The notes under the pieces are model-generated. The model was not told the origin of the DNA, did not search any database, and saw only the letters and a list, made by a program, of their open reading frames with translations. The position numbers were made by a program, and so were the translations under genes. From Tubiluchus corallicola (Eukaryota; Animalia; Priapulida), in NCBI GenBank assembly GCA_030141605.1, contig JAQGDQ010000385.1:1-64000 (forward strand): a stretch of 64,000 bases of DNA, given 5' to 3'. Position 1 is the first letter of the stretch, and every line of letters begins with the position of its first letter. Of the stretch, positions 11 to 55,782 are shown one piece after another.

Positions 11-5964
<5,954 letters not shown>

Positions 5965-8018: not shown

Positions 8019-10831
8019 ATGCGTCGTGGCTATCCAGGTATTAAATTTCCGGTAGGCCCGCGCTTAGCTTCAGTGTGTTTATTAACTTAACTATAGTATA
8101 GTATAAATTATATGAGTACTAATTTAACTGTAGTACCGCGTACCAAATGCTAATATCGTATATGCAGATTGTAAATATAGCTCATAAATTGGCATTTACA
8201 TGAGTAGCAAAAATAAGATTCACCAACGTGTGACACTGTTCTCATTGGGTATCCTGAATCCTGATCGTTAAGATTCAGAATTACTGAAGAAATTCAAGTC
8301 ATTTTGTAATTGCAAATGATAACAGTTCTGGCTACGTTCAGCTGTTTTGCAGTATTATCTTGACAAAAATGTTCAATTATTGCACCCTATAAAGAGCTGG
8401 CTTTCATAAGTCACGAAAGTTATGTTTTTGTAGTTACATGTACATGTACAGAATACTGGGCTACTTCTATACGGATTAATAAGCTAAAATTAGTCATCAA
8501 TTTCAATTCAGTTTTATTTGCACAAATACATACAATGTACATTGGCAAAGCAAGATAATACACGTTAAATGCTACAAAAACGCAAAAAAATTACAATAGG
8601 CAATACAAAAATTACAATCAGTAAAGTCAATTCAACGTCGAGATCACTTCAAGTGTGGGCGCAGTCATTGTGAATGAAAAATAGAGTGATCTGATTACTG
8701 TGCAGTATAAGTAGTTAGTGTGCTAGGTGCTTGAGCCAACTTCTTTTGCAGGTACAGTTACTATAACAATCCAAAACATTAAACGAAAATTATTATTACT
8801 ATTTTTGCTTTTTGATGAATCCTGTAATTATATAATGAAAATCGGTAACCATATCTTTGAGCAATTAAATTATTTTTTGCCATTGGTTTGGGATGCCCAA
8901 TTCAGTGATAGTTCTGGTTCGTAATTTTGTGCCCGAAGAAACCCTATGCTAATGTACAGTATTATGGACCTAACTTCATGCGAATAAATTTTGTTAAGCA
9001 TACCTCTTAGAATTATTTTTTATTAATAGTGCCTTCTGACGAGGTAACTTTGAGGATCATTCAGTAAAAACATGATCAGAAGTTACAGTATAAGTCTTAT
9101 TACAGTTATGTTTTCAGCCAATGGTGATATGTATGAGGAAGAAAATGAGAAGCTAGTTGACCATCTTGCTGGAAAGGTCAGCGCTCTGAAGGATGTGAGT
9201 TGATGTTTGTTTTAAACCTAAGTTGATATGTATGATTAAGTTCTATATACATGCTATCATGTTAACAAGCCACAGTTCAAAAGGGTGACTTGCACATAGT
9301 TTGACATTTCATATTGAATTAGTTCAATTTGCAGATGTGTAAGTTGAATTGCTAGGCTAGTTTTTTAAATAACCTAGTAAAATCATTGCTTTTGTGCACA
9401 ATCAATGCAAGCTAAGCAGTGCTGACTGCGATCAGTTACTAAATTGATTACCACTTTTCCAATTCTGAGGCTTATCTAGAGGTTTTCTTTTGATCTAATA
9501 CAGAAACCCTTTTTTGCAATTGTTTAATAAAAACTCAGAGTGTTTTTCTGAATGTTTTTCCATTTTATTGTAGAAGTGGCTTTCATGGCACGTCCTTTGC
9601 ATAAAACTTTTATTTCTGTAATAAGCAGTGGAACTAAGCAGAAAAGTTACTTCACTGTATCTACTGAGCTAAACAACGACTGTTTATGAATGGTACCATT
9701 TGGAGTGAATGTCAAATCCAGGCAGCTACACGCCACTCTCATAAAGCGCAGCTATCCTCTCAGCCATGACCCCGGCCCGCCATGCTTAGTTAGATCCCAA
9801 CCAGTTAGATGCTAATTAGATCTAAATAAAACTTGAATAGTGTCAAAATTGAGCTAATCTTACAAAACTACCACATAACTCAAATCAATCACTAATGTAT
9901 TTAATACTAAGCATATTGTCATCTTTAGGGTAGATCCTTGTCTTTGTTTTGGATAGAAACTTTGCCAGTAAGAAGTGTCATCGGAATAAATTTGCTAAAA
10001 TATTGTTACAGCTAGTTATTGTTAAATTTATCTTACATTTTCTTTCAGTTGTCTATTGATATTGGCCATGAAGTGCGTTCAGGAAACAAAATGCTGTCAG
10101 AAATGGTGTGTAACGAAGTATTAAACCAATTTTTGTAGTTCTGTATGTCTAATATTGAAGTGGTGTCAAATTTTTAATGTTTTTATAAATATCCATATAG
10201 GCTAGCATTTCCTACATTGAGATTGTTTGCTTGTAGACCCGCTCAGAAGTTTACTAACATGTACTAAGGGTATACTGTGTACTGAATACGCAATTCAAGA
10301 TATTTGCATTCTCTGCTTTGTAATGATGAGGTTTGCTACTCATCATAAATGTTACTAATGTTCTGAAATATTGTGGGAAACATATAGGCCTACTCAAAGC
10401 ATTGTGCAAAGATATAAATACATTGTGAAGCAGCACTTGACATGAAAATGTAATATTAGATTTCTTATTTGTATGGCTATATTCTAATGCACTTATATTG
10501 ATGCAATATACAGTTGAACTACTGTTTATATTGATTTCAATTTGTCGTAATTGAAGAATTGATACTGGCATCGGCCATGTGTGTAGCTGCTTTGCAGTCT
10601 CTTCAGTAGTTGCTATATTGTTGGTGATTAAATAAAAAAGCAAAATCACTTGTCTGTTTATTTTTGTAGGACAGTGACTTTGACAGCACTGGAGGATTTC
10701 TTGGTTCCACCATGGGGCGTCTAACAAAAATGTCCAAAGCTGGTCACAATAAATTTATGTGTTATCTTATCATTTTCGCACTTTTTGTTTTCTTTGTTTT
10801 ATATTATGTAATAAAGTACTCTAAAGGATAG
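8019..10831 (+). CDS. BET1: BET1 homolog, ER-Golgi Qc-SNARE, ~104 aa
   Basis: Exons 8019-8037, 9118-9194, 10049-10105, 10670-10831 give MRRGYPA...[58 protein letters not shown]... followed by a C-terminal TM segment (CYLIIFALFVFFVLYYVIK). Confidence 0.95.
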
Positions 10832-13834: not shown

Positions 13835-16800
13835 ATGGGGAAAATTAATGGTAAGCACTGGAAAATTTATTTTATAATAGAAACTTTATTGCTACTTTTA
13901 TGAGTGAGGGTGCAAAATATGTATGTTTTTCGATGCATTAGTTGCTAAAACAGAAAAAGAAGTTGATAAATGTAACCTGGAAGCTCGAGCAAACTGCGTA
14001 TTGTCGCAAATGCTTTTTACATTTTGCTAATTTTAACCATATAGTACTAGTAGGGTCACAAGACAGAGCTAGAAAAGTCTAACTAATAATTGTTGTCTAT
14101 TGATTTTAGGACATTAATGTTCTAGTTGCATTTTGCATTAATAATAATATCTATTAATTTTATATCTTTATGCTTTTTATAGCTGGTACAGTGGTGGAGG
14201 TCAAAGGTGATGAGATGACTAGGTATGCTGGTTTGTTGACTTATTCTGTATAGGTAGTATATTTTGTTGCAAGGGAGTAGGACATTGGCAATAATTGTTA
14301 TGTAGTTTCTTTTTGATGTGCAAACCCACATTTAATAAAATTTTGATACCAAATTTGAAAGACAAGAAATGTAAAAAAGTTATGATACAGCTTAGTTTAG
14401 AACCTAGGACTTTCTTACAAGGCTGATGCCTTAGTCAACTCAGTTACTACACATTTACTGAGATGAACATAAATTTAATTAAAACAGTTGAGTAAATTAG
14501 CATTTCTGAGGCAAAATGCAAGCTGTACGGTCTATAAATTGAAATTAGAATTTATGTAAATATTCAATCTTCATTTTGAGGCATGGATTTTACTAAATGT
14601 TTTTTGCCGTGCAGATTGCACATAGCAGTATATTTTCTGGTGTTTCTCACTTTTTTAGGATCATTTGGGAGTTAATAAAAGAAAGATTGATTTTACCATT
14701 TTTGGATGTTGATATCAAATCTTATGACTTGTGTATTCAAAACAGAGATGCAACTAATGACCAAGGTTGGTTATAATGATCTTATTCTTTAACTTAAGTT
14801 ATATTTGAAAAAATAATGAAAACAACTTTTAATTTGCTTTTCACTGTACAGGTAGTAGTCATCTTATGATCTATGCGACTTATGACTGTTCGATTTTACA
14901 ACCCGACCACTTAACTTAATTAGTTAATTATGCAAAACTGGCTATAACTCATATTTATTTCTATTTTTTTAAACAAATTAACTTTAAATCCGTATTTTTT
15001 CGATAAATTCATTGTAGGCGCGCCGCCACATTTGGTGCGACTACACACACAACATCTTGCCTGTAGGGTATACTGCTTTAATATATGGGTCTGACTTGTG
15101 TCCAGTAGTTTGTCTTATGACCAATTAGCCAGGACATATTGTGGTCGTAAGTTGATGACAACCTGTATTGTAAGTGAAAAACTGGCATCAGTTGATTATA
15201 AACAAGTATGAGTTTTTACCTTTGCAAAGGTGGTTATGTTTTCATTCTGTTTGTTTGTCTACTATTGTGTTAGCAAAATTATGCAAAAACTACTTTCCAA
15301 AAATTTCCACAAGGCTCTACAGAGGGGTGGGACATGGGACGGGAATAACCCACTAAGTTTTTGGATCATCCAAGAAAAATGGGAAGCAAACAACTGTCAT
15401 TTTCAGCTCTTTCTTTGCAAAACTTATGAACACCATGAACAGTAATTGTTTGTGCACCAGTTTTTGAGGTGTTTGGAAAGAAAAGTTCTGAGCTCTTTGA
15501 AGTGAAGAGAAACTAGACTCCTCAATGAGGTGGGTCTCTTTTATTAATAGCTCCACAAGTTATAATTTTGAACAGAGTAGTTCAAATTCATTTATGATTT
15601 TTAGTAAGAAAACTAAAGGATGAAAACTTGCTGCAACATTACCCATATACTCTGTCTAAAAACTATACTTATAAGCACGGTTTTTATGTAAATACAGCGT
15701 ATGTATTCCCTATTGAAGAGTAAAGAAATTTTAACATGCACTATGTAGAAGGTTCATGCGTTAGTGATTATAATCCTATTTAATGTTAGCTAGAGCAGAT
15801 GCCACATTGATTTATTTTTTCATTAAAAGAGTCAGATGGATGTGTTAGATAATGCTTGGCTTTGGAGGAATTCTGCACTTTACTGTGAGTTATTGTAGTT
15901 TTACACGTTTTGATGATATGACTACAACATCTGAAATGCCATTTTTGTTTTAGTCACAGTTGATTGTGCTTACGCTATTGCTAAGTATAACGTCGGTATA
16001 AAATGTGCTACCATTACACCAGATGAGCATAGAGTAAAAGGTGGGTGTGTAACTTTTAAAGGTATTTTAAAGTAAAGACATTGTATTTCTTATGTTGGTA
16101 CTTTTTTACATGTTACCCATTAATTAGATCAGTAATGGTGACCTGTGAAACCTGTCTTGTTAAACTTTGTGATGAAAAAATGTTTTTCTAGTTCATTTCA
16201 TTAGCTGCACTGCCATTTAATCATGAATGTTCACATGTAGACTAACTCTACCTATTCAGAAATTCGTTTTTTGCAGAATTTAATTTGAAGAAGATGTGGC
16301 GGTCCCCTAATGGAACAATAAGGAACATACTAGGAGGGACTGTTTTTCGAGAAGCTATAATTTGCAAAAATGTTCCTCGATTAGTTCCAGGCTGGGTCAA
16401 GCCAATTGTGATAGGTCGACATGCGTATGGTGACCAGGTAACTTAATTGTTGTGGTTAGATATTATTCTTTTATGTCTGCACGTATCAAAGTTGTTGTCT
16501 GAACAGTTTACATATCTGAGAGTTAAATATACGTTATTGCAATAGGGAGCCCCTGCTTCTTCCTTAGATCTATGCGCTATTGCATTTTCACTTTTGGGCT
16601 GACCTATACTTGGTTCCACCCCAGAGGACTACATAGATCAGTTTCAGCCTTGTTTCCTTACATGTGTGTATATCCACTCCCTCAGGGTAAAAAACAGCCT
16701 TGCTTGTTAAACTTTTACTTGTGCTTGGGGGGCTTTAGCAAGTTCAAGATACATATTATGGGACAAGAATCTCTCTCTTTGTAGTTAAACAGCATACATA

Positions 16801-19800
16801 ATTTTAGCATGCATAATCATGCTTAATACTGTTACATAATGTTTAATATTGACATTCAGCTTTGCGGGATTACTTGTTGCTAGCAGTGGCCCAGTATTGT
16901 TGAGCCCTTAGTTTTAGACTGTATTTCGTAGACTGCTGAGCCATTTTTGTATTCGTAAAGTCCTCATGGCTGCATATTATTACCAATTGGTTTAGATCTC
17001 AGTCGTTTAAAATAATGGAATTTTGATCTAGTATCCTGTACAATGCATAGTCCTGTTCTTCCAATATAACTGTCCGATATAGCTAATAGCTGCACAACTA
17101 TGTAATTACACATGTTTCACTATTATATTTGTGTAGCAATATTTAAAATTTTTGAAACAGTTTGTTTTTTATTAGTACAAAGCAACTGATTTTGTTGTAC
17201 CCGGACCAGGTAAATTAGAAATCACTTTCACACCAGAATCAGGGAAGGATATTGTGAAGTATACCATTCATGACTTTGACGGAGCTGGTGTAGCACTTGG
17301 CATGTTTAATACTGATAAGGTAGTCAAAATTTGGCTATTGACATTACAATTTTAATTTTTTATCATTCTTTTTTAAATTTTGTTCTTCATATTTACATGT
17401 TGCCTAGTGTTAAAATGATTATACAGGGTGTCCATAAAGTCTGGGTACATAGTAAAAACAAATACTTTTTAAAAAACAATTTTATTCAATTTTGATGTTG
17501 ATAAATAATATTTTCAACATGATTTCCATCATTTTCAATGCATAATTTGATGCGTTTTACAAAATTCATGTGAACTCGATGGAGTACTGCCTGTTTCTTT
17601 AAACTTCTTGACCAATTTCCCGACGGCAGTAAAACAAATAGGTTGACGATTAGGGTGTCGAAGGTTAAATTCTTCCGCAATTTTACGATAAGACCATCCT
17701 TCTCGTCCACTTAAGAGTACCAAATTGATTCTTTCTTCCTTAGACAAAGCCATTTTCTTTCTGAGGAGAAAAAATAAAAACAAATAAATAAATAGTAAAA
17801 TCCCCCATGTACCCAGACTTTATGGAGTGGTCCCATTTTAATCTTGGAAATTATTTTATAGTCATTTAGTCATGATGCTACTTGGTCTCAATAGTATTAT
17901 TTGCCATTAAAATCACAAAGAGGTCATTTATTGTATAGTGTGTTTATTGTAAGTACTGAGTAAACATGCATCTGATGTGCCCAGATAGGTTATCTTAGTC
18001 TACTTTGTTTCAAACTTACCTAATCTGAAGATTCCGTGCAGATGAGGAGCATGTATGGTAAAAACGAAAAGATAAATTGTAAACTACCGTGAAATGTAAT
18101 GAGCAGTAGACAGAGGTGTGTAAACCCAATATTAAAACATTTGTAAAATGTTAGACTGAAACATAACTTGAATTTTATGATATCATAAGTGTTACTGGTT
18201 AGTAAGTTACAGCATGTATGAATAATATGGTTGTTACCACTGTATTTTCAGTTATAATACTACAAAGTGTTACTGGTTAGTAAGTTACAGCATGTATGAA
18301 TAATATGGTTGTTACCACTTGTATTTTCAGTTATAATTCTACAAATTATATTTTTTCCATTTTAGTCCATCACAGAATTTGCCCACAGTTCATTCCAGTA
18401 TGCTCTGCAGAAAGGTTGGCCTCTCTACATGAGCACAAAGAACACGATACTAAAGCAGTACGATGGCAGATTTCGAGACATCTTCCAAGAGATATATGAA
18501 AGGTACCCCAATGTTGTCTTTAATATAGAAAAGTTCTTTGATATATAGGTTTCACTTTGAAATTTTAATTTTCTGTAAAATCTGTAATTGTAAAATTTTG
18601 GCTTTGCTGGCCTAATCTCAATTTTGCAAATAGCATTGTAATACCCATTTTGTTACCTAATGAATTAACATAGTAACATAGTCACCTCAAAACTTCGATT
18701 GCAAAGTCTTACTTAAAATGTCACTTCTCCAAGTCTTCACAGATGCAGTCTTTTGTGATGGTTTGTTTTAATTTAAATATTTCTTGACAACAGCATGGCT
18801 TCAGTTGTTTGACAGTGCACTTTGCTGTCGTTAAGCCTTGCTGTTTCATGTGTTCACAAGTTGTGTAATGGCATTGGCAGGTGGTGGTGGTGGTGGTGGT
18901 GGTGGTAATGGTGGTGGTGGTGGTGGTGATGATATTGATGATGACCATAATGATAATATCTGCAGAAGAACTTTTAGATTACTAACTAACAGAAACTGTA
19001 ATACTTCTATTTTTTGTTATATGATTTCAATAAACTAAACAGGTATCATAACAATTAATACGACTCTCTAGGTCAGAGGTTCCCAACCTTTTGTTGACGG
19101 TGACCCCTTTCCAGAACCCTGCATCATGTCGCGACCCCACGAAGAACATAATCACATGTTATACTATTAAACATCTTTATCGTTTGCATTTATTAATTTT
19201 AAGTTACTAATCAACAAATTATTGAACAATGGGTAATTGTTTCATTAATTAATTAATGTAATGCGTCTGTTTTGCAATGCGTGGCTCAACGCCATTCAGC
19301 GCAACAATCATGTCCGATTCTATTTCAAGCCGACAAGGGCATTAGTGCGAGAAACCTCATTTCACTTTCCAGAACAAAATTATGTAATGAGAGACTGAGG
19401 AAACAAGACCAATTTATTTAATTTTTATGGAAACGGGATTTTTTAAAAGTAGTTTTTGGCTAAAAATTAGCCCGCGTCCCCACGAAAAGTGCTTTGCGAC
19501 TTCAACTGGGACCGCAACCCCAAGGTTGGGAACCCATGCTCTAAGTAATACCCATTGCTTAGAGAAATGTGCTGACACTATTAGAGTTATCTGATATGTC
19601 GTGGCTGTAAAACTCATTTTGCACGATAATTTCTTTTTAGAGATTACAAAGCCAAGTTTGAAGCTGCAGGTATATGGTATGAGCACAGGCTTATAGATGA
19701 CATGGTTGCACAAGCACTAAAATCAGAAGGTGGATTTGTTTGGGCTTGTAAAAACTATGATGGTGACGTACAATCTGATAATGTTGCTCAAGGTGCGAAC

Positions 19801-22306
19801 TGACTATCTTGTATTGATAGTAGTTTCCTTCTTGTAATCATTTCTTATTTTTGCTTGAGAATTTCTGTAACTTGAAGAGATTGTGGATCAGTAGAATATT
19901 TTTGACATTCTAGATGTCTCAATTTTAATTTGATGAAATAAGCAAGATTAAAATTATGAAAACAAAGTCATTTGTGGTCTACTAACATTTTGATGCACTT
20001 GCACAACACTTTTCTTCCACTTGCTAGTATTAATCGCATGGGCATAATGATGTTAGCTTTGCTGGACAAGTGACCATCTTAAACACTTAGAATGAACTTG
20101 TTTAATGATATTTAATTTATTTGTAAATAAGTATGGTATGAAATTTGTAAAAAGGAATATTTTGAGCCATATTACTAATTATAATACATAATTATAATGG
20201 AAGCAACATGCATGACACTGTCGGTATGGATAACAATTACATTTGTATGCAGCCATGTGACTTCTTGTGTTGTGCTTAATGCCAGTAAACAGCTTTCTTT
20301 TTAAACCCATTATCTATTAACGTAAGACATTACTCAACAAGATTTAACGAATTTTGTATTAAGTATTGCAGGACTGACGCGGCAAGGCACTTCATCACTA
20401 ACACTGGCCCTAGACTTTGGAATAACATAAACGAATACATAAAAAATTCTTTATCTATAAATAACTTCAAAAGAAATTTTAAAAATGAAATCTTTTCTAA
20501 TTATACAGAATAAATCAATTTGATTAATTACACTGCTGTCCCTGTCGTAATCCATTGTGTTGCTGGCTATGTCAATTTTTACATTTCTATAGTTCATGTT
20601 ACTTCATACAGATACCATCACACCTTTCTTCTTCTTTCTATTCTCTATTAACCTTTCCTTCTACTCCTTTACTGCTCTTTTCTATTACACTTAGTCCACA
20701 TTCATTTGGGGTACTCTAAACAAGTAAATACACGGGTCATTTGCGGCTTGGCATCTTGTACACATAATAATAAATATATTATTAAATACTTTTATGTACA
20801 ATGCTGTAATGATCATTGTGGATATATTTAATAAATAAATAAAAATAAAAATAAATAAATAAATAAATAACAAACTCACAAATAACAAATTGTGAGATAT
20901 CCATATGCAACAACTTGTATGATGTACTGCAGAGCAAAAAGAGGAGAGTGAATGTATTACTGAGTTTTGAAGAACTGACTCTAAGATTAGAACAGGCAAA
21001 ACCAACATACCAGTTTCAAGATATTTATTACGAGAAAGTTATGCCTATTACACACTGATTAGTTTAGTTTACCATTTTTAATTGTGCACAGGGTATGGGT
21101 CTCTTGGCATGATGACTAGTGTACTTGTATGTCCTGATGGGAAGACTGTTGAAGCTGAAGCTGCTCACGGAACTGTTACCAGACACTACCGTGTTCATCA
21201 ACAAGGAAAGGAAACATCAACTAATCCTATTGGTACGTACTTAGTTAATTATCTCTCTCATTCTCAGTTTTTTCTTTTCACTTGTGTCACGTCGTATTTT
21301 GTATTACATTATTATCTTCATCATTTACAGCTTCCATATTTGCTTGGACGAGAGGGCTGGCACACCGAGGAAAGCTTGATAACAACCAAGAGCTAATTGA
21401 TTTTGCTCAAGCTCTAGAAGCTGTCTGCATAGAAACAATAGAGAGTGGGTTCATGACGAAGGACTTAGCTCTTTGTATTAAAGGTTCATTGAATAAGTGA
21501 GTGGTATTTACTTTTAATAAGTTTCTGACAGAAATGGTGGCAAAAGCTAGAAATAAATGTGCCAAAGCACTCTGTGTCCTCTGTGCCCTGGTAGATCATT
21601 TTAACGCGTTTATTTTAAGATAATGGTATGTTCACTTAAAGTACTAGCATTTTCCTTATAAGCAAGCTATCTGGTACCTAAGTAAAGACTTCTTTTTGTG
21701 ATGCATCTAGTATTTTTAGTTCTCAAGCTCCATAACGAAATTGAAGTGTTTTTATAAGTTACTAAACAAGTACTAGCCCACTGATTAGTGTGTCTTATTC
21801 TGGGTGTGGGTGAGCACAGCAATAGATTAGCTTAACAAGCAGTTTCTGGAGTAGAATATATCTGCATTTATAAGGACCCACATTCAATGGCACATTTTCT
21901 AAACATATGTGGGAGAGGAGGTCCCAGTTTGCAAAATCACAAATCAGTCTGGTTGATATAGTTGTTTCAATGTTTAATGTCTATGTCTGGAATCAGTTTT
22001 CTTATAAACCAGTCAGTACTGCACGTAGATTGATCTAGCGAGATAATCGTGGAGAGGGTACGAACTTCTGTCTCGGTCGTCTGAGTGTAGTATGTCACAC
22101 CTCCCCAGGTGTGAATGTAATTTGATTTTGCAGTGCATCATTCAGAACTTGCTAGTTTAATTACTGCAACCAACTAATGGGTATGTTTGTAATTGGCACT
22201 TGTCTTTCTATTTACAAACAGAGTGCAAAGAGAGGATTACGTGAACACGTTTGATTTCATGGACAAGCTAGCCGAAAATCTACAAGCTAAACTGAAACAC
22301 AAATGA
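13835..22306 (+). CDS. IDH1: Isocitrate dehydrogenase [NADP], cytosolic type, ~411 aa
   Basis: 11 exons: 13835-13850, 14183-14222, 14659-14765, 15954-16040, 16277-16437, 17176-17319, 18366-18502, 19641-19792, 21092-21232, 21331-21496, 22222-22306. Motifs [77 protein letters not shown]. No N-terminal mitochondrial presequence. Confidence 0.97.
14849..15165. mobile_element. Degenerate Tigger/pogo-like MITE in IDH1 intron 3
   Basis: TA-CAGGTAGT...CTTATGA at the left end and GGTCGTAAGTTGATGACAACCTG-TA at the right: imperfect TIRs with TA flanks and subterminal CTTATGAC-like repeats. Confidence 0.6.
17424..17826 (-). mobile_element. Internally deleted Tc1/mariner-superfamily transposon in IDH1 intron 6
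   Basis: TIR TA-CAGGGTGTCCATAAAGTCTGGGTACAT and its truncated inverse ATGTACCCAGACTTTATGGA. Contains a transposase N-terminus ([14 protein letters not shown]...[10 protein letters not shown]...VKKFKETGS) joined to a C-terminus ([23 protein letters not shown]). Confidence 0.9.
18187..18343. repeat. 78-bp tandem duplication just upstream of IDH1 exon 7
   Basis: AAGTGTTACTGGTTAG...TTATAAT(A/T)CTACA starts at 18187 and again at 18265. Confidence 0.93.
18880..18955. repeat. (GGT)n/(GAT)n microsatellite
   Basis: Directly visible. Confidence 0.9.
19074..19538. mobile_element. Non-autonomous hAT (Charlie-like) element in IDH1 intron 7
   Basis: TIRs CAGAGGTTCCCAACCT / AGGTTGGGAACCCATG; 8-bp TSD CTCTAGGT (19066-19073) / CTCTAAGT (19539-19546); subterminal GACCCC repeats. 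Confidence 0.88.
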
Positions 22307-22327
22307 CTATCATATAGCAAATTGTAG
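22304..22327 (+). other. IDH1: Candidate programmed stop-codon readthrough extension encoding a PTS1 (X-L-S-Y-S-K-L-stop)
   Basis: Sequence reads TGA CTA TCA TAT AGC AAA TTG TAG: the UGA-CUA leaky context, with SKL directly before the next in-frame stop. Confidence 0.85.
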
Positions 22328-22434
22328 GCAAGAATAGTAATAATTGTATGCCTTTTTTATCAAAATGTTGGTTCTTAGACATTTTCACGTTTTCACCAAT
22401 ATTTTTAAATGTGTCGTCTTTTTAGGCATTTTCA

Positions 22435-22490
22435 AGTTTTTACCAATAGTGCACTAAGTACATAGTTTTTACCAATAGTGCACTAAGTAC
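22435..22490. repeat. 29-bp-period tandem duplication in the IDH1 3'UTR
   Basis: AGTTTTTACCAATAGTGCACTAAGTAC twice. Confidence 0.9.
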
Positions 22491-24053
22491 TCAGTGTCCT
22501 GTGTACTTATATAAAAGTGCAAAAAATTAGGCTTGCTACAGTGGTTTCTCTGCAATGCCAAACAATGCGAGCTTAATGATGAATTGTTAATTGACAGCAG
22601 TGTAAGATATTTTGAAGCTCAAATAGAACGTGCCTCAAGGTTTTCATTTGCAGTGCCTTATAATTTTTTTAATCTTTGTTTTAATATTTTTTTAGAAAAA
22701 TTGTTGTAAAAATGTATAGTCAACATGATGGCAGCACAGTTGGATTTTAGTCAAATTGTCATATATTTCAACAAAACAAGCAAAACAGAATTAAGGCAGT
22801 AAGGATGATTTGTAAGCCTATACTATAGTGTTCAATTTTCTAGTGATCAATTTTAAATTTTTAGAAATAAATACAGTTATTGTCTCCACTTACTTAGTCC
22901 CTTTTAACATATTTGCATCTAACAGTAGATATACATGTACTCTGAGGCATGCATTTAAATGCATGAAAACATTTAAAAGGATGAACGATTTTAGCTCTAG
23001 TGTCATTTCATTAATTTTCTATGACTCTTGAAAATTCCTCTTCTCCCTGTTTGATTTTAATTGGTTTTTAAAATTTTTTACGTGTTCAAGTGTTATTTTA
23101 TTTAGCACGAAAACTTTTAGTAAATTGCTAGTATAAGTAATTTCATAGGCCTACAACCGAATATTGTAATTAAAGTGACTGCCCCCTCTAAATTTAACAC
23201 ATTACAGTACCTTTTTCATATGCTGGTAAAGCTCAGAGCATTCCAACTTCCATCTTTCATTATCAATGATCAACATTCACAATTTATTATGTACTTTGGT
23301 TATGCTATCACTGTGTGATTAAAATTTGCCAATGCAATCTAATGGAATCTGTACATTAGTTTCAAATTTTGGTGCCTTGATACACGTGTATCTTAGTAGA
23401 AATCCATTAATATGCAGAGTCACCTGGAAAGCAATATCAGAATCATTTTCATGATAAGAATGGTAATAAAAGATTTTATATGTTACAAACACTTGTGTAT
23501 ATATGCATTTAAATAATATACAAAATGCAATAAAATATTTATAAAGAAACACATACAATGATTTTTATCACATTAGGTCGACTATATAATACCATATTTC
23601 TTATTCCAAGAGCTTGCTAACTTACAGATATTAACAAGTCGACCTTACCATTCCTCATTTGTGGAATGTAGAACTGTATTATAAAGCACATACAATTTGT
23701 TCAAACACTATACTGAACAGAAAACAAGAAACTGTTGATAAATGTGTGTTATAATTAGTTAACCTAATTACAGTAAACATGTAGCATGAAAGGAAATCAT
23801 GCTACTTGTAATCGAACTTTCACTGCGGTTTTCATTTACAAGAGGCAACACTCAATCATTCCACTGGCAATGTCAATATTTATTGATAAACAGCCCTCTA
23901 AACAAAATTCCATTTACGCCACATTTTCTTGCAAGTGTGTTAGCAGTATGTATCTATGACATGAAAGCAACGATGCAATTTGTCTGTTAAGATATTTTCA
24001 ATTCAAATGACTTGCCAATTGGTGGAACGCAGCAGGACAGATGTGCTTCTGGA

Positions 24054-24333
24054 AATTTACACCAAATCGTTTGAAACAAGTGATGCCCTTATTACTTGCT
24101 GATTAAGAACAGAATGACATTAATGCTACAGAAACATCTTATGGTGCACACACCATGGGAAGCAATGTAGAACAAATACAAGTAACATGAACAATTTATA
24201 CCAAATTATTTGAAAGAAGTGATGCCCTGATTGTTTGCTGATTAAGAACGGAATGACATTAACACTACAGGAACATCTTATGGTGCACATACCATAGGAA
24301 GCAATATATAACAAATACAAGTAACATGAACAA
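24054..24333. repeat. ~139-bp diverged tandem duplication between the convergent IDH1 and PKMYT1 genes
   Basis: AAGTGATGCCCT...GCTGATTAAGAAC...ACATCTTATGGTGCACA...AACAAATACAAGTAACATGAACAA present twice. Confidence 0.9.
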
Positions 24334-25425
24334 GCATTACTTAACTTAACACTAAATACAAAAATAGCTTCATTTAATACAAAAAAGAAGCAGCAAAAGC
24401 AATCAATGTTTATACAACATTTCTATGATGGTATGAATAAATGCACATGAGTAAACATTACCAAAAAAATGTTATAAAATTAATTTTTAATCTTATTTAC
24501 AAAAGTCCTGTGTAAAAATATCAAGATGAAAACTAGTGAGAACGTATCTACCTGTACATGATTTACAAAATGAGAAGATAAATTACAGTAATATGTCTCA
24601 CCTGTAAAGAGTAGCTAAGGCAAGGATATGTGAATATTTTTAGGAGCACATCAGAACTCACTTGCAAAGAAATAGAAATATCTGTTAAATAGAGTTGACT
24701 CTATTTACCACCAACGTTAATTCTAAAGAAATCGATTACTGTAACTGTATCTCAAAGATTCAGCTGTACATCAACTAAAGATATTTGTCTACGAAGCTGG
24801 AGATAATTTTAACGTTTAATGTTTATCTTTGTCTAACTTTACTTTAACTGGCAAGCTATAACAAACAGTTTGTATTTGACCTATTCGAGATGTATGATTC
24901 TAAAATGCTATGCTACACGAGTCTTCTGTTTTATTAACACATTCAGTTCATAAGTGCTAGTTAAAACTGCCTACTTGATCTTCACAAAATTTTGAAAATC
25001 TTTATTCAATTTGTTACCAGTCTTTATAGTCGACTGCCCCATTACTGGCTAAGAACTAATACAAAAAGGAAACACTCGGCCAGATCAAAAGGTCAAATAC
25101 CATAGGTATCTTAAGTCAATCCAGAAACTTATGTAAATTTAAAAATTTGAATGTTTTTAAATATACTGGTGTGAAGTCTCGCCATATCTGAAACCCAAGA
25201 AAGCTATTTTAATAAATAGATTTTTCAGTTCAATGTGTAATGCACTGTAACCCTTATCCATAGAGGGGTTTTATAGTACGTGCCTGATGTCATTTATCCA
25301 CTATACCTTCTGAAAAGGAGAATACTGCTCAATATTTAATGTTTTAAAAGTAAGGCTTTGGCACAATTTCTACAGAAACCATAATTACAAATAAATTCAA
25401 GCGAATTAAAACTTAAGATGGTAAT

Positions 25426-28400
25426 TCAGACATCCTCATCAGACAATTCTGCTGCTTCAAATACACGCATCAGGTTTTTTGGACCAATGTTCAATCTGTC
25501 TGGTACAACATCTTCTGGAAGACTGTCTGTGGCACTTTCATACGAACTCTCTAGGGCAGTACGGCACAAGTTCAACCGGGGATAATTAGGAGATAATCTA
25601 AAATGAATAATAAATTAATCCTGTGTACAAAGCAGGTACTGATAGTTTGAAATAGCAACACATAAATGACAATTTGCAAGTCAGCATTTCGCTAAAACTG
25701 TTACAGGTTTGTCACTCTACAATTTACTGTAACGCTACAGCCCAACAACTTACAGCATCTTTTTAATTACATATTACTCAAACAGTTTTCTCAAATTTGG
25801 AAGATGACGATCATAATGATGAGCTTATAACTTAGATAAAAACAAATGCTGAGCCTTCAAAGTTGCTTAAGGAGATTATGGTACCTTACACAGATAAAAT
25901 TATTCTACTTACCTACTCCTTGAGGAATGCTTAGCAGAGTAAGACTTTGGAGGCGTAGAAAACATTGAAAGATCTCTATGCAAAAATTGTGGAGCGGAAT
26001 TTAAACAGCTTCTGAAAAGACAAGATAAACGAATAACTGATGAGTAAAAACAACCAGTCACATCCTTATATACTAAACAACCAAGTTTGTAAATTGAATG
26101 AGTAAACTTTATCACTCTAAAAATGGAAGTACATGAACGTGAATATTTACTTACGATACATCATCAAAAGTTGCAATATAGCTTTCACTAGATGATGATC
26201 CTGAGTAAAGCATGCCAAGTGAATTACGTGATGCATTTAAATGATCGTGGAATACATCGTCTACAAAAAAAAATAAACTTAACTTTTGTTTACTAACTTA
26301 CAATTTACTTAACAATTTCAAATAATTACACATTATTCATATAACAATTTTAAATAATTACATATTATTATTACATAGGAGAACAGCTGAATGTTCATTA
26401 TGTGTACTTGGCTAAAGAAATAAAGTAGTGGTAAGCCTCATTATTAAACAGTCAGATCTAAAGTAACATAGAGTTTCGGTCAAAGCAAAGCCTCGATTTG
26501 ATTTTGATTTCGAAATTCTAACTTTAACAAAAACTTTGTTACATTCCTACCAGAAATGCTTATGATGCAATTGCACAAACATACCATCAGAATAACTGGT
26601 ATCCCACCCGGAAGTGAGGCGGCTATGCTGTTCTTGACGATGAGGAGTATGTGCTCCAGGTTTAATACCGAACAATCGTTGAATGGCTGCAACTAACAGA
26701 TTCCATAATCCAGTTATAAACAGGAGAAATGTTCTTGCCAAGTTTTTAAATTTCAACAGCTAAAACAAAAAAAGAATAAATGTATTATTAACTTTCAATT
26801 TGCTCACTCAAAAAATAATAGCGTGATGAACTCGCTAGCAGCTGCAGCTACAGTCTGGTCACACGACCTTTGCTTTCTAAAGATTTAAACAGTCTATCCT
26901 TTTTGCATAGAATGAATCAGAACAACTCAAATACAACCATGGTCAAGCTGAGATAATGAACTAAAAAGAAGTGGCAGGCTACAGGCCTACCTTATAAGGA
27001 ATTTAAATATGCAATTGCAATCAAAGGCAGTTTAAAGAATGGGCGAACACTCGCTGGCTTAAGCAGATATTTATCAGCAAAAAGGGCCATCATTTATGTT
27101 AAATAAGACAAAACATTTGCTACTAGTAAGCTTGAGTCATTGCTCTTGGTGTATTGCCGTAGAGCAATTAATTTTGGGAGAATCAAATCTTAGATCATTA
27201 GTATTTTGCCAACATTTGGTCCTGCTACAAGATATTAATAAATAAGTGCATAAACCGACTTAGTGAAAAGTTGAATGGAGTTTTTCATGTCATTTAGCAA
27301 AGCTTAACTGTCCCAGTACAGCAAGCAATCGGCAATTACATCACTACTATAACATAACACATACCTAATAGGCATGGCATGATTATAGTTAATTTAGATG
27401 AACATAATTATAGCCAAACACATTTTCATATGGTTATATTTTTATATAAAAATAATGTGAAAATAAAAACGAAAATAAAATTAGCATTAAACTGAGGTAT
27501 TTTACAGTAATTCCCAATTAATTTTATAATTGAAATGTAAAGTATGCAAATCATTATTTTTACCCATTTATAGGGCAGCACAAACATTATGCAGTTGAAC
27601 GGCATAATAAGCAGCAAACACTTAAAACAATCAAAATTTCTCATTGTTATTAAATGCCACACAAAACTATGCTGTTTGCCCTAGCAATTAAACAAATAAG
27701 ACCAAAGCCAAATGCATAAAAACATTCACCTCAGCTTTTATAATTTGGCTAGTTTCAGTTTCAACACTTAGAATGTTGAAATTAGAGGTGGAAGTGGTTA
27801 AACCATTTAACTGATTGGGTATTTATTTCCGATTACTGATTATTTTTTCAGCTGCCGATGTAAATTATTCCAATACCATCCTCAATTTATTTTTTTGAAA
27901 ATCCACGAAGATTGCAAGACGTAGGTAGCTGTCATGCAGTAATAACAAGTAATATTGTTTACCATTGTGTAGTAAATAAGTGCAATGGCATTGCTGTTTA
28001 GATGTGAAGGTTTCACTTAAGGATCAACAGGCGATTTTCACGCACATCCGCTTTCTTACAAAATAACAGAAAACGACACGATAGATCAGTTTTGAAAATA
28101 AGAAATTGCATTTATCCTACTTATAAAAAATTAATGTACAAAAAGGCTGAATTATCACCACTCTTAGCCTTATGTTATTAAAAGTGGTGTACTTCAGTAT
28201 TTTCTTCATTATAAGTTGTACTGTTTTGAGCTAAAAAATAAATTACTAGTAATAAGAATGCCATATATTTTGTTTTCAAGTATCTTACCACATATTTGCA
28301 CTAACAAAACAGAGTTCTCATCACAGCATAGTAATGAATGTTGACCCGACCGGTGTAAATGTCCTACTTTTATTCATTAAAGCTCTTGTAAAAATAATAG

Positions 28401-31400
28401 CATTAAACTTACTGCAAACTTAAGTCTTATCATCCAATATTAACACTGGGCAGCAAAAGTAAATGCCGGATGCTCAAAAAATTAAAAAAATAAACAAGTG
28501 AGTGTTAAATTGAAACTTTCATAAGAAAAACCGAAACAAACTTACTATCTGCTTGACCGCAAGCTGCCTGTTTCGTAGAGAAACATGTTTCTGTACAAAT
28601 GCATATGATAAAATGTCATCTATCGATGGTCGACGAATGTAATCGGGAAACATCATCAGTCGAATAAGTTTAGCCAACTCTGGTGACAAGTCTGAAAATT
28701 ATAAATGACTAAATATATAGAAGCAAAATTATATTAGCAACAAAACACACAAATGCTCATGAAATTCTACCAATTTATGTATGAACATAACAGTTTCTAA
28801 TTTTGGTTTCAAAAATTCTAGATATAACATATAAATTAAAATTTGTCTCAGTAATACAAAAAGTAATTGTGATATTTAAATCTAGTAATGAAAGTAATAA
28901 ATCTAGTAACTGAAAAAATCTAGCATTATCACATTAAAAGTTTCTCCAAGAAACAAAAAGCAGAATGTTTTCAATAATTTAACTTTTAATGGTTACTTAA
29001 CCACGCAATCATGCAAATGTGTGTAGTTGGAATTTAGTATTAATGTTGAAACAAATATAATTTGATAAAGAAACATTAAGATATGTCTGCATAACTGAAT
29101 ACTTTACCACTGTGTTATTGAAAAGCATCAAAACTGAGCTCTTTTACCTTTCACTAAATAATCTGGAATGTTTCCTTCTCGTAAGTGATGCCATGGATCT
29201 TCTCCTCTAGGCAGGTCCAAGTCAGAAGCTAATTCCAAAATAGTTATACCCAAACTGAAAAAATAATGCATTAACCAGTTGTGCAATCAGCTAGTTAAAC
29301 CAATCAGCTTATAAAATTAAAGACATGTTACTAACTGATAGAAGGCAGGCACCGATAAAAAAGAAATAAAAACATCAACGTGGAAATCAAGTTTTGGCTT
29401 AAATACTTTTACCTAAAAATTGATAAAAAACAAAATTATTTTAACTATGGCATTACCTAAACACATCTGCATGCTTCCCAAACTTTCCATCCATCAACTC
29501 GGGTGCCAGATATTTTGGATCACCCTCTACAGCATCTGATAAATCTCCCTAAAAACAATGACTTACAATTAATTACCTTTTTTACACAATATTAGAACAA
29601 AGTATGTAACTGACTGTTGTTGCAATCTCTAAACTGAATATTTAATGACCAAACAACTCACACCTTCAAGTTCCTATGTAATTAACAATTCTTTATTCAC
29701 TCACTATCCAAAATGCAATTTAAAACATTTTTAAAAGTATTAATTAATGAGTACTGTTATATTGTTACATACATTCATATACTTTTAAGGCATGTGAGGT
29801 ATAAAAACTTAAAAAAATATTTGAAACCTTATCAACATATTTTTCCACTTAACGACAACAATTACCACTCAAAATATCATATTTGCTGAACTTAACTGTA
29901 GTACTTCAAATACGATTTTACAGACAACAAACTACCAAGCCTGTTGAACTACAAAATTGTAGAAACACACTGACATAACATTCACAAGATCTGTAAACTT
30001 AAGTACGACTCCTTGGCAAAAAGTATAGAAATATTGTACCTTTTTTAAATCCAAAACAAGTCCAAAATCTCCCAACTTACAAATGCCGTCTTGAGAAATA
30101 AATATATTCTCAGGTTTCACATCCATATGGATAAGGTCATGATCATGAAGATGCTTCAGCGCCTAAAACAAATAACAAATTATGATTATTGCTACAAAGG
30201 CAACAATTAGGACACCTTATCAAAAGAAAAGTAAATTATTGCGTCAAATTGCACAGGAATAGTTAAGGAACATGGGTAAAGGAATTTAATAAATTAAGAG
30301 TGTGTTTTTATCTCAATATAAAGTTTTCTGAGCTGCAAAAAGTCCTGACTTGAAACTTTGAAATTATCAGTACATTAAACCACTTTAGTCACTTGTAAGC
30401 AAATAGCTAAACTAACCAGATGAATATATGAATTTTCAATTTTGAAACTACTCAACACAATTTTATTTGATGTGGATCTGCATTTAGCAGAGGCATCCTA
30501 TAAAAGAATGGCCAAACAAGTAATAGCATTCAAATGTATTTTAATAGATACTTACATCTCTAAGTGGTCGCAAGAAAGGTGCAAATCATTGTCCCACAAC
30601 GCTAAGTCAGTTATTATTTTCTACATTTCAGTTTGCTTCGAAACTTTGTATTGCAATTCACACAAACTAGTGTCTGAGTGGGTGAAACTAACAGTTTTTG
30701 GTTACAGTTTACAGTTTAATGGACAAACAAGTTGTATTGCTACTAACAGGTAATAATTTTTGTTTTAAAAACCATTTCCAAAAGAAATAATTATACATTG
30801 CACGCAGTTTCAAAATTCAAAATTTATAGATGAAAATTCGTGGAACTAATTTAGTTATTTGTAATTCTAGTATCATTATTTGTTTTTCATTTACGGATCA
30901 TTAGTCCTAGGATCTCATTGACAAGAAAGAGACGGATGGCCCGTGAGAGTATGAAATAAAGTGAATTGCACATAAATAACCATAAATGTGCAGTTTTGTG
31001 TTATTTTAAACATTATATTAATGAGCACAACAGAAGAGATCTTCGAGCTACACACAAGAATGCAGCAAAATATAACTATGAACACACAACTAAGATATAT
31101 ACATGTACGCTATCACAAAATGTATTGAACAGTTTCGTGTACCAAGATAACATTGTTTTTGATAGTCAACTAATTTTCTTGAAATCAATTTTTGGATGGC
31201 ATAGAATCTGACCAAACACGTTTCTACATGCAGTCACACATACCATAAGCAAATCCACAGTGTAATTCCAAATAAGCTGCTCGGGAATATCATGATTTTG
31301 ATCAGCAAAATCACTCAAGCTGTAAATATGAGTATTATTTATTATACATAAATATAATAGAAGTATGTATATATATATATATACATATATTGTTACTGTT

Positions 31401-34169
31401 ATTGTTACACTGTACATCAACTAATATAAAAAGCAAAACAGCTCTTGCAGCTTAAATTGGTTTCCAGGCACATTTTTTCTAAAAAAAAACGATAAGGTGT
31501 ACAGTACACCTTTTACTTGAAGAAAATGAGAAACAGGAGCTCGGATAAGTCTAACACTATGTTAAAACTCTACAAGCACATCAGAAAAAATGCTCAAGTT
31601 AGCTTTAGCAAACCATGAACAGTAAAGAAGCATACAAACACTTCTTTAAAACATACCACAATACAAGGTTGGGATGAATTTTGTTAAACGGCAAGCGAAA
31701 ATCAGATTACTGTTTACTGGCTGAATATATTAAATAGAGTAAACTATGTGGCAGTATCAGATTTCCAAAAATAAATTTATGAGGTGATAAGAGCTGTACT
31801 CAGACCCTGAAAACAAATTAATTAACTTTTTGTGACACAATAAAATATGAAATTATACAGCCTCACGTGATATCATGAAAAAGACAAACAAAAATAAATT
31901 TCAAAATACTATTCTAAAAGCACATAGTTATGATTAAAAAAAAATTAACAAAATATATTGATCAATACCAAGCTGCTGCAAATACCCAATATCTGAAACA
32001 CAACTTTTTAGTTTTATCATTAACTGAAACTTGAATCAAAGCATGAAAACAGCATGATCCAAAGAGGGAATAACTGTTTAACCATTAAAGTATTTTATGA
32101 GTAATATAACATGCAGCCAATATTGAACACCAAATTGCAAAAGCTATTTTGAAAAGCCAAGAAATAATATAATGAAATGCTTTTTCAATTATTTTGAAGC
32201 TAAAATACTTTACCTGATTTGGCATAATTCAATTTGTAAATACAAGTGTTGCCTCTCTTCCCACGCTTTAAAAAATTCCACACAATTTGGATGCTTTGGC
32301 AAAACTTCATGCTTCTGTACTTCTTCTAGCTTACGCAGCCTGTAAAATTTACAAAGTATTGATGCTAGCTTGCAAGCTGAGATTAGTATTAGCTGATGTA
32401 ATAACAATAATAATATTCACATCTTAATTTCACCTGTCTGATTCACCCCGAAACTTTTGTTGACACTTTTTCACCGCATAATATTTTCCATCTTCTTTAC
32501 TTTGCACTTTGTAAACCTAAATTGTACAAAAATGGGATATTAAATCCAACACGAGTTTATAAAAATAACTGTAAAAAAAGTGTTAAGCTAAAGTCACAAA
32601 TAGCAGACAAAATAAATACAACAGTTTTTGCCATAATGCAAGCTATCAAACATCAAGTATCAACAACAATAGTTTATGAACTACTGGATAATAAATCTGC
32701 AAAATTCTACTTACATGCCCAAAAGAACCTTCTCCTATTTTGCTTATAATTTCAAAACACTGCTCAAAGTAAAGTTGTCGACTCTCTTCATTGTAATGAG
32801 GACTTGAAATATCTTCATTTGCGTTAAGGTTGAAAACAATGCAAATCGGGACTTAGCTGTGATCCTGCACCCATCAGGTACCGTTATATAATGTACATGT
32901 TGTGGCTATCTCAACTACATTCTAACGCCACATCCTTTCTTAACGAGGCAAATAACTGGAGGGAGTATGACAGACAAATTTTTCCAAAGGCAATGTTGAT
33001 GAATGTCACACATCTATTTAGTAGCCAAGCACTGAAACGCTTAACTTGAGTTGCCAAGCACATTATTATGACGGCTTGGCTGATCTCTACAATGAATTAA
33101 GTTAATGTAAAAAGTAAATTCTGTAAAAGCAAAGCAAAAAGATCAAATATTGTGTAAAAGTTAGGCAGACACTAAATGTAAATTTGACTAGTTAGGTAAC
33201 TTGTAAAGGTTACATTATATTATAAAAATGTATACTGAATATAGCTCCAACATTTGACTCGCTACATTTAACTACTTATAGCTGCTTTGTTCTGTTATCC
33301 TCACTCTCAATGCCCCATTACATAACTGAGATGACATTTTTTTTCATTCTGAAGGATACTGTGAGAGCTACTTCTGAATGACACTGCTCTGGCTTTCAAT
33401 GAATTACTACGACTGTTACTGAATACGCGACTTATAGGAGGAGCACTTTTCACTGGCGGCTTTGGAGGTAGTGCATCTCGTGGAGTTCGACGTTCCTAAA
33501 ATTTTTCAAACATATGTTTAATTTCAAAGTGTTGTACCATTACATAAAATGTGATAAGTAAAGTTTATATAATACTTCGAAATCTCCCAAACAGTACTTC
33601 GAATTTTAATCCATAATAGCAGCAACATATAAGTATAACAAATATACAGCTATATTTCCTGTTGTTTAAGGTTGTCAAATCATAAGGAAAGAGTTGTCTA
33701 CATGTCAAGTCAACATCACAAAAATTATACTGAAATATCAGATTCCCAGAAATTACTTTGCTATTAAATGAGTTCTTATTTTTCTAATATTTAGTTTTCA
33801 GTTTTTTATTCATATTTTGATTAACACATATTTTGATAAAAAACTGATTTTTTAATCTCAAGAGCCGGGGTTACAGGGGTGGTAAGTATTGATTATATTT
33901 TTTACTCTTTACAATATGTCATTCCTTGGTTTGCATTTTCTTGGGGTTATTATAAATATAAAGAATTTACTTGGTCCACAAGATCATTGTAGAATGCACT
34001 ACAAGAAGGTGCTTACTTTCAGCTTATAGATACAGAATCAGTACATATTCTGATTTTAATTTATAATTTAAGTAATAAAATTATACTCTAATCATACCTT
34101 TTTCGTAGAAAACAAGCGCTCTTCAGTAAAAAACTTTGGTTTGGGTATAGGAGTTTTCAATGTAGCCAT
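25426..34169 (-). CDS. PKMYT1: Membrane-associated Tyr/Thr CDK1-inhibitory kinase Myt1, ~536 aa
   Basis: 14 exons: 34169-34098, 33495-33360, 32812-32715, 32516-32434, 32339-32214, 31319-31244, 30162-30040, 29548-29457, 29254-29148, 28691-28546, 26759-26585, 26260-26155, 26011-25913, 25597-25426. Motifs [61 protein letters not shown], a hydrophobic membrane segment and C-terminal KNLMRVF. The start may lie further upstream at 34327. Confidence 0.94.
32813..33359 (-). other. U12-type (minor spliceosome) GT-AG intron, between coding exons 2 and 3 of PKMYT1
   Basis: 5' splice site GTATCCTT (33359-33352); branch site CCTTAAC (32829-32823) about 10 nt from the AG; no polypyrimidine tract between branch site and AG. 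Splicing restores the frame ...SSHNISSPHY... Confidence 0.88.
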
Positions 34170-35282
34170 CTTAATTTTTTTATAACAACACTCAAAACAA
34201 TTGGTATGCTGAAGTGTCAGTTCTAGTAAACGTACAAAAATTTCCCACTTAATATGAGTTTTTTGACTTTTTCGATAAAAGATAGTAGCAGCAAAATCTT
34301 TGCAGAATCATGCTTACCACCCACCATCTTTATCAACACAGATATTTTATGTAAGTGACGCACCACCCAAGGATAAGATTTAGAATTCAACTCCCGCGGG
34401 CCTTGAATAAAGGCTTACTATCTCCATAAGCTTCCTTGGTCTCCCTAAAACATACATAATCCAATGTTGTTGTTTATGTTAACAAATTGACAAACGGACA
34501 CATTATTGGCAATATGTATTTTATGTGCAGTCATCTGAAATCTATTCTAAAACAGTAGTTATGTTAATTCAAATAAATCGAAATTAACACTCTTAAGAGA
34601 TCTATGTAAGTGGAATTCTTGTTTGTGCTGTGTATAAGTATCAGCCACTGGTGGTTAATCTTAAGTAGTGTTTGAAGTTCAAACTATCAGTAAAACTTCC
34701 TATACTATCCGTTAGTTGCCGATCTAATGCACACCAGCTGTAATTTTAAATTCTAAATGGCCATGACAACAAAAATTATCTTGCTATACATGGTTAGAAA
34801 CTAATATAGAAAATTATAAAGATCTAAAAGAACAATTATAATGTATGGCGCACATTAGACTGGACGTTCAGTATCACCAAACTTGATGATAATTACAAAA
34901 TTAAGGATATTGATAAATTAATTAATAACAGCATGCAGCTCTATAACTATATTATAACATATAAATAACATGTTTGTAATAAGCACTTTGTAAAATTCTT
35001 AACTTTCTAACTCAGTACTTCCAAGTTCTAGTGAGCCAGCAGTTTAATAGCTTGAATTAAAAACCAGTTTTGCAAAATTTGATTTCACTTGATCATTCAT
35101 GACTAATTCGAAAAATAGGCAATCTTTTGAATAAACCTATGAACAATGGTAGCAAAACAATGAATCAATGTATCATCTCTGTGGCATAGACAAGAACTGT
35201 ACCTTCAAGGCCACAATAAACGACCTGTATAAATTAACGTTTTAGAGTGATAATGCTAAGGTGTGCAGTGCCAATGTGCAAT

Positions 35283-55100: not shown

Positions 55101-55782
55101 TCGACAAAACTTGGAGGCAGAACGGCAACCTGTAAGACATTCAGCTTTTGCACCTCCAACGAGTATAAGCCACATACAGGTTTCAAACTGTAATTATGTA
55201 CCACAGCCTCCTATAACAATTAATGAAGGTGGTCAGCACTTTTCTGACTCTAATGATGTTCGCATTTTATTCAAAGATGGAAGTGAGGCTTTTTCTGGCA
55301 GACCTATTACACGGCTGATTACAGGTGATATTAATCAAGTTATTCCAACTTTAGTGACGCAGCCTGGTACTTTAAGAACGGTAGACAGCCAAACTTTTAT
55401 ACTTCATACAGCCGACAGTAATCCAGTTACGCTAGAGGTGCCTAGTTATCCCGGAATGAGTAATCACGGCATGGTCCAAGTTATAAGTGAATCAACGAAT
55501 GTAATTTTGCCAAAAATTGTTGTCTCCAATCAACCCGAACAGGTAGTTTATCAGTTTGGACCTCCACAAGGTGAAAATGTGTTACATGCCATTCCATTTC
55601 ATGCAAGTTTTCATGGGGATGGTGTGTTGGCTTCTTCTGTACAACTTGAGAACGGTGCACTACATATAGCTGATTCAGACCTACAGTCGGGTACTAGCCA
55701 AAATGTTAATTCTCAAGCAAATGAAGTTATTTCTTCAGTAGTGAAAGGGCAGACGGGAAATTCACTTGCTGGGAGTAGTTAG
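46152..55782 (+). CDS. ZFP64: ZFP64-like C2H2 zinc-finger transcription factor, ~762 aa, with an N-terminal C2HC motif and 10 C2H2 fingers
   Basis: Exons 46152-46155, 47930-48054, 48355-48519, 49060-49141, 49433-49495, 49921-50077, 51388-51452, 51975-52047, 53692-53894, 54431-55782. N-terminal DIHICGTCKVQFNDVQLFILHKRENC and fingers containing FSRSDKLKIHMR, SLKKHMRIH, RNSGQLTVHLRTHTGD, KFKIKSDLKRH and FVREDSLRSH match ZFP64. The 4-nt first coding exon is less certain. Confidence 0.88.
50446..50924. mobile_element. Complete Tc1/mariner (pogo-like) MITE in ZFP64-like intron 6
   Basis: Near-perfect ~27-bp TIRs CAGTGGCCGCCGCTTATT(G/A)TGGACAC, TA TSD on both sides, and subterminal GTCCA(C/T)A(A/T)TAA repeats. 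Confidence 0.93.

Follow-up and report, generated by a model that had tools for sequence, protein, structure and literature searches.

A predicted readthrough form of IDH1 with a C-terminal peroxisomal signal in the priapulid Tubiluchus corallicola, and the recurrence of its stop context in other IDH genes

Does the IDH1 gene of a priapulid carry, behind its stop codon, a signal for a second, peroxisomal form of the enzyme? The question is raised by a 64,000-nucleotide stretch of Tubiluchus corallicola DNA (hereafter, the window), in which the IDH1 frame closes with a TGA followed by CTA, and a second in-frame stop lies directly behind the tripeptide SKL. The original prediction held that ribosomal readthrough of the TGA exposes this SKL, the canonical PTS1, one mRNA thus giving a major cytosolic and a minor peroxisomal enzyme.

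The IDH1 gene and its in-frame extension

The gene model (Table 1) was obtained by reading the splice sites by hand and then checking them by script. All 10 introns are GT-AG, an in-frame stop was read by hand just 5' of the ATG at 13835, and the 411-aa frame ends AKLKHK before TGA-CTA. The 30-mer quoted for the end of the gene was found exactly at 22298-22327, and the reading HK*LSYSKL* made from it was borne out, with KLKHK followed by TGA-CTA, LSYSKL, and TAG. The claim that the normal terminus lacks a targeting signal also held, the last exon ending without a PTS1 up to the first stop.

Table 1. Features of the IDH1 locus in the window
Feature	Position	Strand	Remarks
IDH1 (cytosolic NADP-isocitrate dehydrogenase)	13835..22306	+	11 coding exons, 411 aa, spliced frame open
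IDH1 exons 1-6	13835-13850, 14183-14222, 14659-14765, 15954-16040, 16277-16437, 17176-17319	+	
IDH1 exons 7-11	18366-18502, 19641-19792, 21092-21232, 21331-21496, 22222-22306	+	
Last coding exon up to first stop	22222..22303	+	Terminus without PTS1; joint 21496 to 22222 in X5 and X6
Stop codon TGA in leaky context CTA T	22304..22310 (TGA 22304-22306)	+	Same 7 bases as fly Idh
6-codon in-frame extension LSYSKL	22307..22324	+	Canonical PTS1 SKL at 22316-22324; covered by spliced X5 and X6 contigs
Second stop TAG	22325..22327	+	Puts SKL at the C terminus; from sequence
3' UTR stretch	22352..22581	+	In X5, 174 unalignable letters instead of 230; joint 22351 to 22582

Pfam Iso_dh was matched on three of the seven IDH1 exons scanned, and the product combines a full-length Iso_dh fold with closer similarity to IDH1 than to IDH2 and the absence of a mitochondrial presequence. 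A public-assembly protein that is 95% identical to the window IDH1 (P0001) has the same length and the terminus KLKDK, and it stops at the same residue. Since P0001 scored higher against cytosolic IDH1 structures (∼750 bits) than against mitochondrial IDH2 (∼668 bits), the window gene is IDH1. The Asn of the DGDVQSDN motif, which the window protein also has, was found only in P0001 and Priapulus among 119 proteins. The IDH1 trees assigned the window to no phylum; the shared Asn and the neighbouring MFAP1 gene (see below) indicate a probable priapulid, or a related scalidophoran, that is distinct from Priapulus caudatus.

None of the runs in which this DNA was found is catalogued as RNA, and transcript evidence was drawn from contigs of further runs that carry the species name. 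X5 and X6 are 93 to 95% identical to the window in exons and represent relatives, not the same individual; the X4 contigs gave no cover over the last IDH1 exon, and the joints come from X5 and/or X6. Four of the 10 modelled introns were seen as joints in these contigs, that from 21496 to 22222 in both runs. Spliced contigs run from exon 10 through the extension, X5 covering 22222-22351 and X6 covering 22222-22334. The extension, whose absence from transcripts had been named beforehand as grounds for doubt, is present in these X5 and X6 contigs: they use the last exon and cross the LSYSKL region.

To judge from the from_end column, differences from the window are apparently listed only at a distance of at least ∼31 bases from the end of a contig. 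For X5, this leaves 22252-22321, where three changes were observed in 52 coding bases, two of them in the His codon, versus none in the 18 bases at 22304-22321. TGA CTA TCA TAT AGC AAA therefore stands without a listed change, and 22322-22327, with the last Leu codon and the TAG, is too near the contig end to judge. Near the contig ends there are six further unlisted differences in X5 and three in X6, and the whole of the X6 extension falls in this unlisted zone. The alignability of X5 ends at 22351, 24 bases past the second stop, while the extension itself still aligns. This pattern would be consistent with selection on the extension, and it points weakly to conservation within the species. 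By eye, a direct repeat of ∼26 bases (two copies, ∼22437-22492, plus strand) was noted in the 3' UTR, within the stretch that is replaced in X5.

The frequency of such a motif was estimated from the window's own sequence. A random site begins with CT 5.6% of the time, a canonical PTS1 ends the frame at 0.41% of CT-starting sites (SKL at 0.10%), and the joint chance of CT plus a canonical PTS1 is ∼2e-4 per TGA stop at the local composition. Among the 157 TGACT sites on both strands of the window, an in-frame canonical PTS1 was found behind the IDH1 stop only. Since chance alone could produce one such motif in the course of a whole genome, the claim is carried by the comparative data and not by the single site.

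Stop context and PTS1 in other IDH genes

JGI metagenome contigs were scanned with a degenerate version of MTKDLAxC[IV][KR]G, a motif ∼36 codons before the stop. The pattern is blind to stop context, and it misses some animal IDH1 genes, such as that of Priapulus caudatus. Of about 170 loci, 116 were listed. Seventeen of these were dropped before counting (16 without a last exon and 1 that ran open), and a resolvable IDH stop was present in 99 (87 contiguous and 12 across an intron). Clustering on the last 60 coding bases, with a threshold of 85% identity, gave 86 non-redundant clusters. Five of the 61 clusters other than TGA-CT were omitted from the extension counts because the extension runs off the contig, leaving 56 closed extensions. 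A canonical PTS1 was defined as [SAC][KRH][LM].

Forty of the 86 listed clusters end in TGA, and CT follows in 25 of these 40, compared with a background of 5.7%. The original prediction had called for joint conservation of the context and an in-frame PTS1, and such conservation was observed: a canonical PTS1 closes the extension in 21 of the 25 TGA-CT clusters versus 0 of the 56 other closed extensions (listed loci; Fisher P = 9e-16, a value that, like the others given here, ignores kinship, insects being over-represented among the scanned loci). The remaining four TGA-CT clusters end in the near-variants SQL, SNL, SRI, and ANL, and under a relaxed PTS1 rule the counts among listed loci became 25 of 25 versus 2 of 56. 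The off-frame controls gave a canonical PTS1 in 0 of 44, and the two listed TAA-CT clusters both lack a PTS1. At the first stop, the published PTS1 pattern was matched by 1 of 25 TGA-CT clusters versus 13 of 61 others (P = 0.057; listed loci).

The set without TGA-CT includes bacteria and protists, and the count was therefore repeated on the animal-node loci alone. Among the 23 long listed loci under this node (SH-aLRT, 91), a canonical PTS1 ended the extension in 9 of 12 TGA-CT loci versus 0 of 11 others (P = 3e-4). Eight of the 23 have no PTS1 of either kind, at the first stop or in the extension, so some lineages either do without the signal or obtain it from a paralogue. The taxonomic groups of the metagenome loci were assigned from their tree neighbours only; on this basis the TGA-CT loci group with insects, decapods, gastropods, the bryozoan Watersipora (SH-aLRT, 96), and two further groups.

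The linkers of the 25 listed TGA-CT clusters range from 4 to 18 residues and are mutually dissimilar, so that what selection keeps is the stop context together with the tripeptide and not the linker between them. Within the same 25 clusters, the codon after TGA is CTA in 14, CTG in 6, CTT in 3, and CTC in 2, and the base after CTN is G in 11, C in 8, A in 5, and T in 1.

One listed locus combines both kinds of signal: in L002 (minus strand, match 370-401), the IDH ends AKL at the first stop, TGA-CTA follows, and the extension ends SKL. The animal-node IDH of L047 (minus strand, match 472-503) ends GLCIGC instead of a PTS1, a terminus that we take to resemble a CaaX motif.

Named IDH1 proteins were compared at their annotated termini. 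All 25 vertebrate proteins end x[KR]L, whereas none of the 37 protostome proteins carries a PTS1 of the published pattern ahead of its first stop. A terminal SKL or SRL is present in the IDH1 proteins of Trichoplax, Halichondria, and two hemichordates. The annotated IDH1 of Priapulus caudatus (P0222 and P0366) continues for three more residues in the main frame, to a terminal RKL, a non-canonical variant. Set beside the hidden SKL of the window, this terminus raises the possibility of a switch within one small phylum.

Four invertebrate IDH1 proteins (P0012, P0017, P0027, and P0124) are 30 to 45 residues longer, at 444 to 455 aa, and the start of L025, a locus that matches P0012, resembles a mitochondrial presequence. 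In some lineages, one IDH1 gene may serve three compartments. A 595-aa IDH of bacterial type (P0107) has a long C-terminal extension rich in lysine and glutamate.

The proposed readthrough and its alternatives

In view of the coupling of a PTS1 to TGA-CT across clusters, a readthrough-gated peroxisomal IDH1 is very likely: UGA-CUA readthrough of one IDH1 mRNA would yield a major cytosolic form together with a minor, SKL-tagged form that is predicted to be peroxisomal. The comparative counts thereby support the interpretation first offered for this locus, and at the level of sequence the window IDH1 shares with the class of PTS1 isoforms gated by UGA-CU readthrough the stop context, an in-frame SKL that fits the published PTS1 pattern, the joint conservation of both in orthologues, and an extension retained in spliced contigs.

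By analogy with mammalian MDH1 and LDHB, a near-cognate tRNA (Trp or Arg) would probably decode the IDH1 UGA in ∼1 to a few percent of cases and so let a minor fraction of ribosomes pass, at a level set by the short context and not by RNA structure. UGA CU(A) was reported to be sufficient for readthrough in fungal and human cells, with ∼1% for LDHB, in the sections consulted of PMC4207609; for MDH1, the consulted part of PMC5133446 reports insertion of Trp or Arg and finds the downstream 50 bases dispensable. Reporter and localization proof is described for MDH1 and LDHB in the same portions of these two papers, and the 2014 result for IDH is presented there as a prediction (PMC4207609). No stimulatory 3' stem-loop stood out in 22304-22423: the segment folds at -20.5 kcal/mol (z, -1.49), and 20 of 200 shuffles were as stable. 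Readthrough stimulated by structure was accordingly rejected.

The base at +7 is U, not the stronger G. The original prediction had cautioned that CUAU in place of CUAG might make readthrough only moderately efficient. This caution stood in part, as the base behind CUN is G in 11 of the 25 listed TGA-CT clusters and U in a single one; against it, fly Idh also has CUAU, and UGA CU is itself reported to suffice.

The 418-aa extended product would be expected to bind PEX5. In the alignments, its SKL ends ∼5 residues beyond the end of the terminal tripeptide of human IDH1, and the signal should therefore be exposed. Once imported, the enzyme could regenerate NADPH through an isocitrate/2-oxoglutarate shuttle, and the homodimer may bring a non-extended subunit along by piggy-back import. 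IDH1 is described as a peroxisomal NADPH source in mammals and yeast in the consulted part of PMC7829553, and peroxisomal IDH1 has been proposed there and in excerpts of PMC9549241 as the NADPH supplier for dienoyl-CoA reductase through the same shuttle.

Observations on flies speak against this expectation. In a table of the review PMC7477296, consulted in part, fly Idh is scored as not peroxisomal in a tagging screen in S2 cells, in which the tags may have interfered. Idh was not found in the consulted main texts of a fly ribosome-profiling study, a mosquito readthrough study, and a 2026 fly preprint (PMC3840789, PMC5100048, and PMC13278127, respectively), nor in those supplements of the fly ribosome-profiling and mosquito studies that could be read, in which the large tables were incomplete and the set of gene identifiers searched was provisional.

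The alternative that survives best, although we consider it improbable, is that the motif is a product of chance or a relic, the context and SKL being present and readthrough too low to matter. An expectation of ∼2e-4 per TGA stop allows single cases across a genome, U at +7 is rare among the listed TGA-CT clusters, and efficiency differs more than 15-fold even among UGA-CUAG genes, according to the consulted part of PMC12233894. However, IDH1 was already a candidate before this locus was considered, the pattern recurs in 25 listed clusters with unrelated linkers, and the X5 UTR becomes unalignable 24 bases past the second stop, while the extension can still be aligned.

Exposure of the tail at the RNA level, whether through a different splice acceptor or through A-to-I editing that turns UGA into UGG, seems very improbable. 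Read by hand, the AG at 22316-22317, if spliced to exon 10, would yield a protein with the terminus NKL, and since contigs drop rare variants, low-level editing or splicing could go unseen. This acceptor, however, has no pyrimidine tract, and its use would remove the conserved last 28 residues; the sole joint seen there is 21496 to 22222, X5 has no listed A>G at 22306, and neither route accounts for the CT that follows TGA in 25 of the 40 listed TGA clusters.

Still less credence is given to the idea that the gene normally has a constitutive SKL terminus and that the TGA is an assembly error or a nonsense allele of recent origin. The annotation of Priapulus caudatus IDH1 through to a terminal RKL would fit such a reading, but it is already largely refuted: at the stop, the window is matched by contigs X1 and X2 from the source sample, the diverged run X5 is unchanged at 22304-22306, and P0001, 95% identical, ends at the equivalent residue. 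Decoding of the UGA as selenocysteine was rejected as next to negligible in probability, as Rfam SECIS is absent from 22200-24600 even at E up to 1, the one loose SECIS-like pattern, at 22579, folds weakly (-9.6 kcal/mol), and coupling of CT to a PTS1 fits near-cognate readthrough, which the consulted part of PMC4207609 reports also for fungi without Sec machinery.

Relation to known systems and the surrounding genes

Readthrough of IDH with exposure of a PTS1 has been predicted before. In Fig. S3 of Stiebler et al. (2014, PMC4207609), TGACTA plus a PTS1 is given for IDH in Drosophila, Apis, Tribolium, and Aplysia, and IDH without readthrough is given for C. elegans, vertebrates, and Ustilago; the Drosophila IDH row of the table there reads Targeted, with a predictor score of 2.0. 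The fly prediction mentioned in the first reading of this locus was thus correct and proved to be wider, with four protostomes in print for the same gene, context, and mechanism. The gene, the TGACTA, and the in-frame PTS1 are shared with the window, which the fly matches over AAA TGA CTA TC. The tails differ: the fly has SHL, the bee SKY, the beetle ARL, and Aplysia SKL after a long linker, whereas the window has a short linker and SKL, the strongest tripeptide. To the four species of that study, the present data add the priapulid lineage and at least 25 further clusters. The full-text literature, in which most subscription papers are not included, yielded no later survey of animal IDH1 readthrough and nothing on priapulids. 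Since 2014, therefore, gene, context, and mechanism have stood as a prediction, and what is new here is the priapulid lineage and the breadth across animals.

Mammalian MDH1x and LDHBx resemble the window IDH1 in the leaky UGA-CUA, in the short extension ending in a PTS1, in being redox-cofactor enzymes, and in a distribution over cytosol and peroxisome, which is predicted for the window. They differ in that they are NADH enzymes with G at +7 and are experimentally proven, whereas the window IDH1 is an NADPH enzyme with U at +7 and its readthrough form is a prediction. Vertebrate IDH1 is the orthologue and shares the cytosolic and peroxisomal location (again predicted for the window), but its PTS1 lies in the main frame, in all 25 named proteins, whereas that of the window is gated by a stop codon. 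In pre-duplication yeasts, the cytosolic IDP is likewise an NADP-IDH whose PTS1 is hidden behind a stop and exposed by recoding; there, according to the consulted part of Yanagida et al. (2015, PMC4526572), recoding is a +1 frameshift, and in the window the PTS1 is in frame behind UGA-CU.

Tentatively, and at slightly less than even chances, the IDH1 PTS1 gated by UGA-CU could be an ancient invertebrate state, held by insects, crustaceans, molluscs, bryozoans, priapulids, and perhaps beyond, with a linker that turns over freely. Lineages would then toggle among a hidden signal, a hard-wired one (vertebrates, hemichordates, Trichoplax, and Halichondria), and none, and the hidden SKL of the window and the terminal RKL of Priapulus caudatus may mark such a switch even inside the priapulids. 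Were this reading true, IDH1 would be the second pan-animal case of readthrough after MDH1, and its termini would offer a natural series for tracing the passage from leaky translation to a fixed signal, or the opposite course.

Standard annotation ends at the TGA, and invertebrate peroxisome inventories therefore list IDH1 without a PTS1 and miss a likely source of peroxisomal NADPH; a fly example is found in the consulted part of PMC7477296. The comparison turns a four-species prediction into a broad and statistically strong pattern, and it supplies many natural contexts for testing the requirements of UGA-CU readthrough.

The genes around IDH1 were also noted. A small spliced gene lies just upstream (9120-10830, plus strand); Pfam gave no match on the two exon frames scanned, and from its translation we take it to resemble the SNARE BET1. 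Tail-to-tail with IDH1 is a protein kinase gene (∼25400-34240, minus strand; Pfam Pkinase on 29935-30162), whose motifs presumably resemble those of PKMYT1/Myt1. A C2H2 zinc-finger gene occupies 49884-55779 (plus strand), with a 475-codon frame at 54355-55779, and a reverse transcriptase (RVT_1) in two separate frames at 884-2413 (minus strand) is probably a broken retrotransposon. The MFAP1 gene (∼37900-43830, plus strand) has four exons with Pfam matches. Its near relative P0246 is 97% identical to the window over the last exon and is nearest to Priapulus caudatus (67%; 555 bits versus 495 for the next protein), with which it paired at an SH-aLRT of 99 in a 26-row tree without annelids, nematodes, onychophorans, or other scalidophorans.
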